From Hadesarchaea archaeon (GTDB taxonomy: Archaea > Hadarchaeota > Hadarchaeia > Hadarchaeales > Hadarchaeaceae), in assembly GCA_029259175.1 (NCBI GenBank), contig JAPDJH010000005.1, forward strand, positions 1 to 64,000: a stretch of DNA of 64,000 nt, given 5' to 3'. Of this stretch, positions 1-4,525 are shown in pieces. Numbering within the stretch: position 1 is the first letter of the stretch; every line of letters starts with the position of its first letter. Both the position numbers and the translations under genes were made by a program. The notes under the pieces were generated by a model, which saw only the letters and a list, made by a program, of their open reading frames with translations, had not been told where the DNA came from and did no database searches.

Positions 1-8
1 CTATTATT

Positions 9-872
9 ATGAAAACTCAAAAGAAGGTGAGTAGAAGTATGTCAGGACGTCTGCCATGGGTAGCGGCGGCAGTAGTGATAGTAATAGTAGCAGGATTTGC
101 AGCACTCTACCTCAGCAACCCGACGCCGACTTTCGGAACCATCGGCTTGACCGTGCCGAAGGTCTCCAGCGCGTCTGCAGTGTGGGCCACCCCAGGAACA
201 CCGCTCGGCACGTGGGTAGCGATAACCGGTCCTGCCGAAGGGGCAGACAACTGTGCGATCGAGAACATCTACATCGTGGATAACATCGCACCTAATCAGA
301 CAAACTTTGGAGTAAACATAGGAGAGAAGTACCGAACCAGTTCTGGCACTGACAACATTTGTCTGGATGGTGCATCTGACCCGATCATCGACAACAACAA
401 CGACACCGCAACGATTCCATACGAAGTGCCCTTCAAGATTGTGGTCGCCGCAGTGCTCTGGGCCGACGCAGACATGACTGGCAACAAAGGACCAGATGGA
501 GCGAGGCACGTTGCTTATGTGAATAAGGAGAACGCTTATGTCTACGCGAGCTTCACCGGTGATGGCTTTGACTACAGCTCCGAAAACACATTGCTTACCG
601 GACACGCGTATGCCTTTGAGAACGATAACCCGTGGACCGCAACTGGGAACTACGGTGGGCAGAACGACTCTGGACTAGCACCCTACGGATGGGCAGCCGC
701 TCCAGGTGGTCTCGACAACGTCAAAAACACCGACCTTCCGAACTATGTCGACTACGCGCGCGTTAACTACGTCCTCTGTGACTGCAACAACGCTGCCGGA
801 GGAGACGGAGAATACCAGTTGCCCGCCGGCGGATCGATGAACATCGACGTCACCCTGTACGTCTGGGTGTAA
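9..872 (+). CDS. Secreted or membrane-anchored surface protein, putative major filament/matrix subunit
   Basis: Basic N-terminus, hydrophobic helix (PWVAAAVVIVIVAGFAALYL), then a Asn/Asp/Gly/Thr-rich beta-type body. C-ending codons are frequent. Directly upstream of signal peptidase genes and followed by a poly-T tract. Confidence 0.6.
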   Translation: MKTQKKVSRSMSGRLPWVAAAVVIVIVAGFAALYLSNPTPTFGTIGLTVPKVSSASAVWATPGTPLGTWVAITGPAEGADNCAIENIYIVDNIAPNQTNFGVNIGEKYRTSSGTDNICLDGASDPIIDNNNDTATIPYEVPFKIVVAAVLWADADMTGNKGPDGARHVAYVNKENAYVYASFTGDGFDYSSENTLLTGHAYAFENDNPWTATGNYGGQNDSGLAPYGWAAAPGGLDNVKNTDLPNYVDYARVNYVLCDCNNAAGGDGEYQLPAGGSMNIDVTLYVWV

Positions 873-931: not shown

Positions 932-1360
932 ATGCGAGCATATTTCATTTTGGTCGCTCTTTTAGCAATTACAATGGTGACGGGGGCTACTTGTCAATCC
1001 AACGCTCAACTTAAAGACGCTTCTCAAATATTCGGCGGATTTCAAGCATACGTGGACAACCGGATGGAGTTCGTGACGGTAGAGGGAACCAGCATGGCAC
1101 CAGCTTTCAAGCAAGGAGATACATTGATCGCCATTCCATTTTCCATGAATTCTCTCAAAGTCGGAGACATCGTCGTCTGGGAAACCCAAGGACAGCTCAT
1201 AGCTCACAGGATTTATGAAATCTCACAGGAGCATATCTGGACCAAAGGAGACAACATGCCAGCTCCAGATACTGTGCCTGTGTCCTCTCAAAACTATCGC
1301 TGGCTCGTGCTCGGTGTGCTCTTTACCTCTTCTGAAAGCTGGAAAGAGGAAAAAGCATGA
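932..1360 (+). CDS. Signal peptidase I, S26 family (SipW/Sec11-like Ser-His dyad)
   Basis: N-terminal hydrophobic segment; motifs VEGTSMAP (Ser), GDIVV, IAHRI (His), TKGDN..PD. Confidence 0.85.
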   Translation: MRAYFILVALLAITMVTGATCQSNAQLKDASQIFGGFQAYVDNRMEFVTVEGTSMAPAFKQGDTLIAIPFSMNSLKVGDIVVWETQGQLIAHRIYEISQEHIWTKGDNMPAPDTVPVSSQNYRWLVLGVLFTSSESWKEEKA

Positions 1361-2208
1361 AGAGTAAATACCGAAAAGACTTACCGAAAGTTCTGGTACT
1401 AATCATGCTAGGCATAATAACCTTTGCTTCTGTTTATACCATCCGAACACGTCTCCATCCCCCTTCCCCCATAGTCTTCAATTTGATAAGCCTCGATTTC
1501 AAAACTGATTCCTATGCTAGTCTCCAGCTAGAGTATCTCACAACGGGCAGTTGTACCGCCGCATTGCTAACCCCCAGCGGAGCCGAGGTGGTATCGATCC
1601 TCCTCCAGCCCGGACACTCTATTGTTGAACTCCCACTAACCGAAGGGCTTGAAACATTACGCGAGCCCTATTATGTATTGCGAGTAAAGGGTGGCGGGCA
1701 GATCCTCTACGAGTCTTTTCTCAACCGACCGATGATACTGTATGAATACCGTACCACCAAGTGGGGGTGGAACCCCATCGAAAACAAAAACACAATTCGT
1801 GCTTTCGAAGCACGTCTTTCTAATGTCGGAGATCTCCCGGTCTTTGTCCAGAAAATCCGAGTACGCGTTGGATCCGTCAATCTTGGAGAGTATCCAGTTG
1901 AGCGATGGATCATGCCTGGCAAGCAACATACTCTCTCATATTCTACTTGGTCTGAATCCCTAGAACATCCAAAAACATACTCGGTCACAATTGAGGCATT
2001 GGATATAGACAACGAAAAAATTGAACCGCCTTTGGGACGACGAACTCTTTCTCTCACCGCTCCTCCCGGCAAACCAGTGTATTATTGGGAACGTATTGAG
2101 CAATGGAATGGCATCGCTGAAAACCATTTTGGAGTAGAACACTGGAAGGGGATCATCCGCGCGCCAGTGAGGTGGGAGGTAGCAACACGATGGTGGATAA
2201 GAGGATAA
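1357..2208 (+). CDS. Membrane-anchored hypothetical protein with Ig/CARDB-like beta domains and a Trp-rich C-terminus
   Basis: N-terminal TM; LSNVGDLPV...IMPGKQHTL...YSVTIEA resembles a CARDB/Ig pattern; ATGA overlap with the peptidase gene. Confidence 0.6.
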   Translation: MKSKYRKDLPKVLVLIMLGIITFASVYTIRTRLHPPSPIVFNLISLDFKTDSYASLQLEYLTTGSCTAALLTPSGAEVVSILLQPGHSIVELPLTEGLETLREPYYVLRVKGGGQILYESFLNRPMILYEYRTTKWGWNPIENKNTIRAFEARLSNVGDLPVFVQKIRVRVGSVNLGEYPVERWIMPGKQHTLSYSTWSESLEHPKTYSVTIEALDIDNEKIEPPLGRRTLSLTAPPGKPVYYWERIEQWNGIAENHFGVEHWKGIIRAPVRWEVATRWWIRG

Positions 2209-2651
2209 AACGGCGGAGGCGTCAAAACCTCTGGCTCGTGCCCACTGCCACTGCTATCGTCTTCACCCTAATTCTTGTGGGTATTGTAGTACTTCTTTCT
2301 CCAACTAACAAACCCTATCTAATTAATCGCACACCCTATTTCTACGGGTACGCTGCTTATTTGGATTCAAGAATTGAATTTGCCGTTGCGAGCGACTGGA
2401 ATATGGGAAACACCATTGCCCCGGGGGACACGATCATGTGGGTCAGCGCGCCGCAAGAGAGCATCCACGTCGGAGACATCGTGTACTACAAAGCACCAGA
2501 TTCCGGCAAACTGGTGGCCCAGCGCGTCGTGGACAAAACCGACACCGGCCTCTTAGTTAACGGTGACAACAGCTCATCAGAACCAGTCGAAATCCCATTC
2601 CAAAACTTGCGGGGCCTAGTAATCGGCGTCCTCTACCACAGATCGAGCTGA
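2172..2651 (+). CDS. S26 signal peptidase paralog, predicted catalytically inactive
   Basis: Aligns with 932..1360 (AYLDSRIEF/AYVDNRMEF, GDT, VGDIV, GDN, LVIGVLY), but GTSM is replaced by DWNM and AHR by AQR. Confidence 0.75.
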   Translation: MGGSNTMVDKRIKRRRRQNLWLVPTATAIVFTLILVGIVVLLSPTNKPYLINRTPYFYGYAAYLDSRIEFAVASDWNMGNTIAPGDTIMWVSAPQESIHVGDIVYYKAPDSGKLVAQRVVDKTDTGLLVNGDNSSSEPVEIPFQNLRGLVIGVLYHRSS

Positions 2652-2776
2652 CTGCTCTGAAAAACACTTGGAAAAGGCACCGCCCGGTTTTTTATCTTTT
2701 CACAGTAGTGCTCGAATACTAGTCGGGGAGACGCGTGGCTACTCCCGCAGAAGCCGTTCTCAGCCGCTGGTAGTGG

Positions 2777-3345
2777 ATGCGCTGGTGGCTCAAGCAGAAC
2801 TACAAGAACCTTGGAGGCCACACTCGTTATCGGGCTTGTGGTCGTGTGGTGGTTGCTGCCCAAACTACCCCCTGAAACATGGCCACGAATAACAGGCCCT
2901 ATCATTCAAATCACAAGCCGGCGCGGGTACCTGGCAGTCCCTCTTGGGCAAGAAAGCGGGATAGAACGAATCTATATCGCGCCCACCGGTCATTACGACC
3001 CCTGTAAGGATCTCGCAAAACAAAATGTGCTCGCGACCATCAAGGGAAGCAACCAGACCGTTGCCATTCCGCCTAACACCATATTCGACATCGTGGTCGT
3101 GGTGAGGGCATTCGAGCCCGAAGCCATCGCCTGCGCGTCCAAAGAGAACCTTGCTGTCGGAATCAAAGCAACCGGGACGTTCAAAATACCGTTCAAGTAC
3201 TCCACCGACGACTAAGAGTATGTGTTTGAAAACGAAAACCACGGGTCGCCGCAGGGATACGTTACGGTCAACGTGGTGTGGGACAACTACGGTTGGGGAA
3301 TATTTGCTCCCGGGCAATTAGGTAATGACAATAAATAGATGCCGA
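2777..3345 (+). pseudogene. Disrupted paralog of the 9..872 surface protein
   Basis: IERIYI/IENIYI, FDIVV/FKIVV, SKEN/NKEN. After TAA 3213-3215 the frame continues EYVFENEN (cf. AYAFENDN) and TVNVVWD; after a frameshift near 3298 it reads EYLLPGN*VMTI (cf. EYQLPAGGSMNI). Probable ATG 2777 is out of frame. Confidence 0.7.
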
Positions 3346-3524: not shown

Positions 3525-3860
3525 TTGAGGCTGATGGGCCTGGGGGTTTTGAGATTTGCTAGTTTGATGATTGTAGCGCTTTTCTTTACGAGCATGTTCT
3601 TCACCCCCGTGCAGGCCCAAAACAGAGGTGAAGACACCCCATTAGCTGAAAACAGCGTTGAAAGGAGTAACTTTGCCTTGGGCTCCAATTACGAAGATCG
3701 GTGGTCAGACAGACACGGAACCAACAAAAGCTTCATCCCGCCGGGCCGCGAGCGCAGGAACTCCAACCCATCTGACCACGTGAAAACCCCGTCCAGTCAT
3801 ACTAAGAAAACCTCTAAACCCAGCGAACCCACTCCTTCTGGTAAAGGGAAAAAGCGCTAG
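3525..3860 (+). CDS. Small secreted, basic, low-complexity hypothetical protein
   Basis: Signal-peptide-like N-terminus ending VQA; Ser/Pro/Lys-rich tail. Start may be ATG 3534. Confidence 0.45.
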   Translation: MRLMGLGVLRFASLMIVALFFTSMFFTPVQAQNRGEDTPLAENSVERSNFALGSNYEDRWSDRHGTNKSFIPPGRERRNSNPSDHVKTPSSHTKKTSKPSEPTPSGKGKKR

Positions 3861-3874
3861 CAGAGGGGCATTGA

Positions 3875-4525
3875 ATGAAAAAGATCGACCGCATCTACCG
3901 TGAGATCCTCCACCGGCACTACACCACTGGTGCGCGCTTCTTCAACCAGAAGGAGATCGCCCGGGTGTGTGGCCTCTCCCTCGGAACCGTCAACCCTGTA
4001 GTCACCAAGCTCGAGCAGATCGGGGTGCTCGAGCGAAAGCCCTTGGGATTCCGCCTCATCGACGCTCGCCGGTTGCTCGTCTACTGGGCGGCCACGCGTG
4101 ACCTCTCCAAGGACATCGTGTACACCACCTTCTCCCCTTCGCGGATTTCGGAAATCGAGCAGGTGCTGTCGACCATGGGGTGTCTCACTGCCTATTCCGC
4201 CTACAAGTGGTTCATGAAGCGAATGCCCGTGGACTACACTCAGGTCTTCGTCTACGCCTCCCCTGAAACGGTCTCCCAGACGTTCAAGCCTTCTCCTAGG
4301 CGCAAGCGCAACATCATCGTGCTGGCCTCCGATGAGCACCTGCTCCGGCTCTCCGAGCACGGATACGTTCCACTCGTCCAGGCGTACGTGGATTTGTGGC
4401 AGCTGGGGGCCCCCGCAAGCCGGCTGGTCGAAGAGCTAGAGCGCGAAATCGCCGCCGCGCCCGCACGGGCCCTAGAACACGTCACCCGCGCCTTCGAAGA
4501 GGAGCCGCCCGAACCCGGCCCCTGA
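3875..4525 (+). CDS. Winged-HTH transcriptional regulator (AbiEi-like architecture possible)
   Basis: FNQKEIARVCGLSLGTVNPVVTKLEQIG HTH; LTAYSAY and VQAYVDLW C-terminal motifs. Confidence 0.7.
   Translation: MKKIDRIYREILHRHYTTGARFFNQKEIARVCGLSLGTVNPVVTKLEQIGVLERKPLGFRLIDARRLLVYWAATRDLSKDIVYTTFSPSRISEIEQVLSTMGCLTAYSAYKWFMKRMPVDYTQVFVYASPETVSQTFKPSPRRKRNIIVLASDEHLLRLSEHGYVPLVQAYVDLWQLGAPASRLVEELEREIAAAPARALEHVTRAFEEEPPEPGP

Follow-up and report, generated by a model that had tools for sequence, protein, structure and literature searches.

A conserved signal-peptidase paralogue without the catalytic serine, encoded beside an active signal peptidase in Hadarchaeota

The stretch of DNA analyzed here, which we call the window, comprises 64,000 nucleotides of a Hadesarchaea archaeon (contig JAPDJH010000005.1, positions 1 to 64,000), and near its start lies a gene for a paralogue of the S26-family signal peptidases in which both residues of the catalytic dyad are replaced (the pseudo-peptidase). 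It belongs to a cluster with the gene order A-type protein, active signal peptidase, 283-residue protein (protein C), pseudo-peptidase, E-type protein, small basic protein, and winged-helix regulator (Table 1). A list of open reading frames (ORFs) gives the pseudo-peptidase as 2172..2651 on the forward strand, or 159 amino acids if the GTG start is used, and the original prediction, which was made from the letters of the DNA, adopted this frame. The ORF is real and intact, and only its start has to be moved: the in-frame ATG at 2190 is preceded by GGAGGT 9 nucleotides upstream, as read from the sequence, and its 153-residue product is found in a public protein collection (P0001) at 100% identity and coverage. 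For these two reasons, we regard 2190..2651 as the likelier gene and dropped the GTG start at 2172. So placed, the gene overlaps the end of the upstream gene 1357..2208 by 19 nucleotides, and that gene in turn starts (1357) ahead of the stop of the active peptidase (1360).

Table 1. Coordinates of the cluster genes and of the two catalytic regions of the pseudo-peptidase in the window.
Feature	Position	Strand	Remarks
A-type cluster protein, presumed substrate	3..872	+	frame open at contig start
Active dedicated signal peptidase I, archaeal/endoplasmic reticulum (ER) type	932..1360	+	142 amino acids (aa); GTSM, AHR, GDN
Protein C, membrane-anchored, 283 aa	1357..2208	+	no family match
Pseudo-signal-peptidase	2190..2651	+	153 aa from ATG; alternative GTG start 2172
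Nucleophile region	2397..2405	+	codons TGG AAT ATG = Trp70, Asn71, Met72
General-base region	2520..2525	+	codons CAG CGC = Gln111, Arg112
E-type cluster protein, broken	2811..3338	+	in-frame TAA 3213-3215
Small basic protein	3525..3860	+	111 aa; predicted signal peptide …TPVQA/QN; no family match
Winged-helix regulator, Crp/MarR-like	3875..4525	+	recurs beside such clusters in relatives

The pseudo-peptidase consists of a basic N-terminus, a single transmembrane (TM) helix (model residues 19-36), and an ectodomain of the S26/LexA fold. As had been claimed from the sequence, it aligns with the active peptidase encoded at 932..1360 (30% identity over 132 columns, BLASTP E 4e-19), a similarity far past chance, and the motifs quoted for it are all present: pseudo-peptidase and active enzyme pair as DWNM/GTSM, AQR/AHR, GDT/GDT, VGDIV/VGDIV, GDN/GDN, and LVIGVL/LVLGVL. 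Box B (S-M-x-P) has lost its serine, and W-N-M-G stands where the active enzyme has T-S-M-A-P, with Asn71 (AAT, 2400-2402) at the position of the nucleophile. Box D (H-R) has likewise lost its histidine and reads Gln111-Arg112, with Gln111 (CAG, 2520-2522) at the position of the general base. Box E is retained as Gly125-Asp126-Asn127 (Asp126 is GAC, 2565-2567), as is the C-terminal G-V-L strand.

Family models separate the two proteins. Against NCBIfam TIGR02228, the pseudo-peptidase scores 33.0 bits (E 4.9e-8) and stays under the curated cut-off of 51.85, which the active neighbor exceeds with 67.1 bits. The Pfam S24/S26 models match the active neighbor only, and no Pfam peptidase model matches the pseudo-peptidase. 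The active neighbor also matches NF046067 (SipW) with E 4.8e-10, far under the cut-off of that model. A homologue search with the pseudo-peptidase as a single sequence returned the protein itself and one 138-residue protein, 85% identical; a profile search was needed to reveal its family. In genome contigs, a pattern search with the single protein hit 83 stretches, of which none could be confirmed. When a profile of this clade was compared with Protein Data Bank (PDB) sequences, it matched SEC11C (5.4e-4), SEC11A, and one bacterial signal peptidase I (SPase I), at E values from 3.5e-4 to 2.7e-3.

The search sets comprised 61 related genomes, then 65 of the order, and then 66 of the phylum. Across the phylum set, the pseudo-peptidase clade has 14 copies in 13 of the 66 genomes, which belong to three families. 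Its members score 133-201 bits against the clade profile and everything else at most 115.6 bits, a gap that is partly circular because the profile was built from the same 14 sequences. At the nucleophile position, the copies carry Asn, Gly, Asp, or Glu, and none of the 14 carries Ser. Eleven residues are invariant in all of them (W70, M72, T75, D80, W84, D96, R112, D126, G142, G146, and Y149), and in a set of 28 sequences W, M, T, D, R, D, G, G, and Y remain so. The general-base His is retained in 9 of the 14; it is replaced by Gln in the window copy and at locus L015, by Lys at L016, by Arg at L018, and by Gly at L034. An active peptidase adjoins the pseudo copy at every one of the 14 loci, and these partners have invariant G, S, M, P, D, G-D, H-R, T, and G-D. 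At 17 further, related loci, a single active peptidase of the same family stands beside an A-type gene with no pseudo copy.

The statement in the original prediction that both dyad residues are replaced therefore holds for this copy and not for the family, in which only the loss of Ser is common to all. Conservation of the Asn/Gln pair, proposed as a check among orthologues, came out accordingly: Ser was absent throughout, and His was still present in most copies.

Searched with a profile, a set of 1.84 billion representative proteins yielded 7463 matches at E ≤ 0.001. Among the 150 matches listed, the best 14 (E 2e-53 to 1e-29) all lack the Ser and all have W-x-M; from E 1.6e-28 down, S-M and H-R prevail, bar a few exceptions, namely the W-x-M proteins P0035 and P0108, the oddities P0056, P0091, and P0111, and some fragments that do not reach that column. 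By these matches, the pseudo-peptidase family is small and lineage-restricted. Among the oddities, P0056 (236 residues) has two tandem domains with Ala at the Ser position in both, P0091 has Ala at the His position, and P0111 reads F-D-F at box B. P0048 is an 1877-residue protein with nine matches to profile positions 72-106.

These alignments bear on whether the protein might have kept an enzymatic activity, as a peptidase or otherwise, with other catalytic residues. The His of 9 copies and the box-E Asp and box-D Arg of all copies would be available to such an enzyme, and the same question has been seriously raised for SipA, an inactive signal-peptidase homologue of streptococci, in the part of the paper available to us (PMC4049620). 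The substitutions argue otherwise. The nucleophile position holds N, G, D, or E in the genomes and also A or Q among the representatives, a range with no common chemistry in which Gly offers no side chain at all, and different lineages have exchanged the His for Q, K, R, G, S, or A. The only invariant hydroxyl, that of Thr75, is one that active enzymes also have, as the usual Thr of box B. With no chemistry common to the residues at the nucleophile position, and with a dispensable His, we consider residual catalysis very unlikely. Two specific candidates were also dropped: Asn71 as a catalytic residue in the manner of an Asn lyase, given the G, D, or E of orthologues at this position, and the Ser three residues upstream of the nucleophile position (ASDW), which had been named as a possible rescue and which is found in 1 of the 14 clade members.

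In a maximum-likelihood tree, the pseudo copies fall into one group (support 87/92), which an intruder on a long branch also joins; the partner active peptidases form a group of their own (82/79), and the single-copy peptidases of the 17 other loci fall outside both. The intruder is a 171-residue active sequence from contig C3 of the same genome (locus L002; branch 1.86), and its place inside the pseudo group is probably an artifact. The simplest history that these sequences suggest is one duplication of a dedicated peptidase followed by one loss of Ser at the base of the clade. His would have been lost later and repeatedly, at least four times as read off the tree (the window copy against its sister on contig C13; L015 against L022; L016; and L018 with L034), in what looks like relaxed constraint. 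With His still present in 9 of 14 relatives, the change to Gln in the window is best understood as a later, lineage-specific loss, and the idea of a targeted loss of the catalytic pair, put forward in the original prediction, does not survive. The clade has gained an invariant Trp beside the nucleophile position and has kept the structural boxes (Met, Thr, box-C Asp, box-D Arg, and box-E Asp).

The ratio of nonsynonymous to synonymous substitution (dN/dS; Nei-Gojobori, 10 pairs from five genomes of one genus) is 0.09-0.45 for the dead copy and 0.17-0.46 for the active neighbor in the same five genomes, so that purifying selection is as strong on the dead clade as on its partner, and the dN/dS check that had been suggested gave no sign of neutral decay. 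A neutrally decaying duplicate, a pseudogene in the making, would nevertheless account for the lost catalytic residues and for the score under the TIGR02228 cut-off, and the neighboring E-type gene of the window is truly broken. That explanation is made highly improbable by reading frames that are open in all 14 dead copies across three genome families, by the dN/dS values, by the 11 invariant residues with the clade-specific Trp70 among them, and by terminal branches of similar length in dead and live copies. A retained, noncatalytic paralogue, as originally proposed, is thus what the absence of Ser, the selection, and the intact frames all point to.

An AlphaFold model built with the 14-sequence alignment (predicted local distance difference test, pLDDT, 88.5; predicted template-modeling score, pTM, 0.70) shows the TM helix 19-36 as an N-terminal membrane anchor on a beta core with the LexA/signal-peptidase fold. 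Foldseek returned two matches at E ≤ 0.001, both of them chains of SipA from Streptococcus pyogenes (4n31; best E 1.7e-4), followed by LexA/UmuD, SEC11A, and SpsB. VIA-align superposed the model on SipA (4n31_B) with Z 11.7 and a root-mean-square deviation of 1.9 over 88 aligned residues; the LexA C-domain (Z 11.4) and Escherichia coli SPase I (10.9) are effectively tied with it, and SEC11C reaches 8.9. The invariant Arg112 and Asp126 are the counterparts of the box-D Arg and box-E Asp, whose salt bridge has a structural role in E. coli SPase I; that both are retained is in keeping with a protein that has preserved its scaffold and given up its active site. We also predicted a three-chain complex from genome G037 (active peptidase 19-136, E-type protein 32-217, and, as the partner, pseudo-peptidase 20-139, each entered as an alignment with most of the TM segment cut). 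The scores were 0.87, 0.87, and 0.86, fell to 0.00 and 0.00 with the partner replaced, and stayed at 0.87 with the E-type protein replaced; the design is unlike the calibration of the tool, and these scores are not usable for or against binding.

The genome (1.31 Mb in 23 contigs, 90.9% complete) has seven TIGR02228 matches, among them two general-type enzymes of 199 residues (SNSM/THR) and 176 residues (SDSM/THR). It contains two live/dead peptidase pairs, that of the window and that of a paralogous cluster (A-type protein, peptidase, 299-residue protein, dead peptidase) at the end of contig C13 (L001). The dead copy on C13 has D-W-N-M like the window copy but keeps its His, and reads A-D-N in box E. 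The 176-residue enzyme is adjoined by the 171-residue TIGR02228 match (L002, G000:C3:13577-16828), and in this third pair both members look active (SDSM/THR in the former; NTSM/CHR with GDAQN in the latter). The L002 pair lies next to a 391-residue protein in which an acidic segment of about 33 residues is twice repeated, and to a 169-residue membrane protein. The contigs of the window and of the C13 cluster both break at or near repeats shared by A-type genes.

The contig starts inside the A-type gene, because the first approximately 40 residues are identical in the C13 paralogue. Full-length A-type proteins (on C13 and in most relatives) have an N-terminal CxxC...CxxC zinc ribbon, a linker, a TM segment, and an ectodomain of about 200 residues, which is modeled as a beta-sandwich of no assignable family (pLDDT 68, pTM 0.69). 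Foldseek found no PDB match to this model at E ≤ 0.001, and VIA-align against 48,161 chains gave only generic beta-sandwiches, with an Ig domain of the IL-18 receptor as the best (Z 5.1); TasA and AbpA are absent from the VIA-align rows, an absence that does not exclude either. A profile of A-type proteins and their relatives found nothing under E 0.2 among PDB sequences, and a single-sequence search with the A-type protein gave 8 matches. Neither Pfam nor NCBIfam matches the A-type protein, protein C, the E-type protein, or the small basic protein, and on 16 relatives Pfam gave only sub-threshold zinc-ribbon matches and one CcdA-like match. PF12389 and PF06510 were not found in the genome, the cluster proteins gave no TasA/Peptidase_M73 or DUF1102 signal, and an Atlas feature search offered leads of only 0.80 to the TasA (Peptidase_M73) and DUF1102 families. 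The zinc ribbon, MxCPRCGYEW...CPRCKGRLDY, lies on the cytoplasmic side ahead of the signal anchor (3..872; L001:300-1328; relatives), and in one relative (L023:596-1357) a CcdA-like ribbon-helix-helix (RHH) domain replaces it (Pfam E 6e-8). A nucleic-acid-binding-like domain ahead of a cleavable signal anchor is unusual, and suggests that cleavage may leave a stub with a role of its own.

E-type ectodomains share the A-type motifs GIENIY, FDIVVAV, and RVNVVWDN-G-GY, and in a tree of the ectodomain columns only, the E-type proteins form one side of a branch with support 100/99. Unlike the A-type proteins, they lack a zinc ribbon, have a basic N-terminus, and carry Pro-rich sequence past the TM segment (9 of 9 rows). 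The TM segment of A-type proteins ends in [AG]-W-[AT], a small-x-small site, in 17 of 23 rows and that of E-type proteins in 0 of 9. An E-type gene adjoins the dead peptidase at 12 of the 14 loci, and the other two end at a contig edge right after the pseudo gene. At seven single-peptidase loci that we inspected, the neighboring A/E-family protein has a zinc ribbon in five and an RHH domain in one, and in the seventh its N-terminus is cut by the edge of the locus; none of the six readable ones is of the E type. This shared distribution suggests that an A-type gene and its peptidase were duplicated together to give a module of E-type protein and dead peptidase.

In the window, the E-type gene itself has a TAA (3213-3215) where relatives have R, K, L, or M; homology runs on to a TAG at 3336-3338, and the last strand is missing from the product. 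The same TAA appears in contigs from each of the four runs examined (DNA contigs of two studies and RNA-library contigs), and the genome, which is 91% complete, yielded no further E-type gene. Some 25-45 nucleotides past the stop of the pseudo-peptidase, in window 2652..2720, there is a T-rich run, ccggttttttatctttt, which may end the transcription unit ahead of the broken E gene. Just before window position 2736, a 20-kb contig of run X4, from a related strain, continues into different sequence as a loose end, so that the DNA downstream of the dead peptidase may have more than one arrangement.

Protein C has homologues in the C13 cluster and, in genomes G012 and G019, some 2 kb upstream of the peptidase pairs; its Atlas leads, to clusters named DUF1616 (0.86) and to CARDB (0.80), are both only at the level of leads. 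The small basic protein, between the broken E gene and the regulator, has a very basic tail rich in Ser, Pro, and Lys. Scans of seven cluster proteins with Pfam and NCBIfam gave no sortase-like match.

Three studies of hydrothermal-vent and marine-sediment metagenomes include sequencing runs that contain this stretch. One contig from a metatranscriptomic library spans 2172-2623 with zero differences, which lends weak support to transcription of the pseudo-peptidase region, and other RNA-library contigs span parts of the genes for the A-type protein, the 283-residue protein, the E-type protein, the small protein, and the regulator. The runs were available as assembled contigs, from which transcript ends, strand, and level are not readable, and stretches uncovered in the RNA libraries (e.g., 771-1694 in both) are uninformative.

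We favor, at about an even chance, the reading that this membrane-anchored, dead paralogue of the Sec11/SipW-like signal peptidase in the same cluster serves as a noncatalytic, peptide-binding assembly or anchoring factor. The pseudo-peptidase would retain the peptide-binding groove and use it to hold a segment of a cluster protein at the membrane, uncut. The likeliest client would be the E-type subunit, which seems uncleavable because its anchor has no small-x-small motif and is followed by a proline-rich stretch. Held in this way, the E-type subunit could stay membrane-bound as an anchor or nucleator, and the active peptidase would meanwhile release A-type subunits. The overall role in assembly or anchoring is proposed by analogy with SipA in streptococcal pili. 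The roles that the original prediction had suggested for the protein, namely substrate-binding chaperone, assembly platform, or heterodimer partner, are likewise hypothetical.

Several points weigh against this interpretation. The E gene of the window is broken and has lost its last strand, and the pseudo-peptidase is nevertheless intact, so its role cannot hang solely on that E copy; a second E copy may lie unassembled past the end of contig C13, or its part may have passed to the 283-residue protein. No filament family matches the cluster proteins, which leaves the assembly of a surface structure itself a supposition. The definitions of the clade (score gap and W-x-M motif) are partly circular with the feature counted, the cleavage sites of A-type and E-type proteins were read by eye from motifs rather than obtained from a predictor or N-terminal data, and the RNA-library contig may come from contaminating DNA.

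The main rival is that the protein is an obligate noncatalytic subunit of its active neighbor, an S26 heterodimer in which it stabilizes the enzyme or shifts its choice of substrate. The constant adjacency of the active peptidase, the overlapping genes (active peptidase/C and C/pseudo-peptidase), and the co-inheritance of the two clades with broadly congruent trees all suit such a pairing, and the mitochondrial Imp1/Imp2 are a precedent for paired S26 paralogues, both of them active. The congruence, however, is expected from linkage alone, and the pseudo clade is co-distributed with the E-type clade, which points to a client. Moreover, the active enzyme needs no such partner, because at 17 loci it stands alone beside an A-type gene. 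We therefore regard the heterodimer as possible though clearly less probable than an assembly or anchoring factor, with which it can coexist.

The retained fold and groove-forming boxes without a nucleophile would equally suit a decoy or negative regulator that binds the signal regions of precursors and keeps them from the active peptidase, so timing or limiting their release; the recurrence of a regulator gene in the cluster might be read in the same direction. Nothing in the data is specific to inhibition, and a common origin with a dedicated E-type paralogue suits a constructive partner better than a general brake, so we think a decoy unlikely.

The favored role as an assembly or anchoring factor can be extended, far more speculatively, to the cluster as a whole. 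As a hitherto undescribed archaeal surface-assembly system with a live/dead pair of Sec11-type enzymes, its live enzyme would cut A-type proteins at A-W-A and so free their beta-sandwich domains. The dead enzyme would clamp the uncleavable, proline-blocked anchor of the E-type protein, which would then form a membrane base or nucleator. Given the cytoplasmic zinc ribbon of A-type proteins (RHH in one relative), each cut would leave a DNA-binding-like stub, and this stub could report secretion to the adjoining winged-helix regulator. We put this forward as an imaginative scheme that, taken in full, is rather improbable.

Inactive homologues of signal peptidases are known as assembly factors from streptococcal pili, where the mechanism is still unclear, and full-text literature searches, supplements aside, turned up no description of an archaeal inactive signal peptidase among the papers listed. 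The clade described here looks like a new and independently evolved archaeal variant within the Ser/His, eukaryote-like branch of the S26 family. Live and dead copies side by side, 17 live-only loci, and a candidate for a co-evolving client provide a natural comparison, which could show what the signal-peptidase fold does when it merely binds. The cluster also draws attention to uncharacterized secreted proteins with cytoplasmic zinc ribbons before their signal anchors in a little-studied archaeal phylum of vents and marine sediments.

The original prediction had likened the protein to the noncatalytic subunits of the eukaryotic signal peptidase complex, which likewise sit in the membrane with a catalytic protein, SEC11, and do no cutting themselves. 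This likeness is loose: to our knowledge, those subunits are not paralogues of SEC11 or of the S26 family, as the pseudo-peptidase is, and no relationship to them surfaced in any of our searches.

The active neighbor, for its part, resembles SipW, the dedicated peptidase encoded with TasA/TapA of Bacillus (PMC9245690), and TafD, that of the haloarchaeal Tafi of Haloarcula (PMC11821415), as far as the accessible portions of these papers describe them: in each case, a small ER-type peptidase is encoded beside its presumed substrates, apart from the housekeeping enzyme. The same portions mention no inactive second peptidase for either cluster, and TafD differs further in having four TM segments and in pairing with a DUF5305 protein. 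For the bundling pili of Pyrobaculum, the passages available to us report that no dedicated peptidase was found.

The closer precedent for the pseudo-peptidase is SipA (LepA) of the S. pyogenes pilus islands. According to the available part of the SipA paper, the catalytic Ser/Lys is replaced by Asp/Gly, the protein has no peptidase activity, its peptide-binding cleft is intact, and it is essential for pilus polymerization (PMC4049620). Like the pseudo-peptidase, SipA is a single-pass protein with the signal-peptidase I fold and no dyad, it is encoded in a surface-protein gene cluster beside processing machinery, and it is the top structural match of our model, with LexA and E. coli SPase I level to within about 1 in Z. 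The two appear to differ in descent, SipA deriving from the bacterial P-type (Ser/Lys) and the pseudo-peptidase from Ser/His enzymes of the ER/archaeal type; by sequence, the clade profile matches SEC11C/A and one bacterial SPase I, not SipA, and we do not place the pseudo-peptidase in the SipA family. They differ also in setting, for here there seems to be no sortase, no LPXTG pilin, and no cell wall, and the assembly role is one that we infer. With the archaeal Ser/His enzymes encoded in its cluster as nearest relatives, and with SEC11C and SEC11A as best matches by sequence, the pseudo-peptidase seems to have lost its activity independently of SipA.

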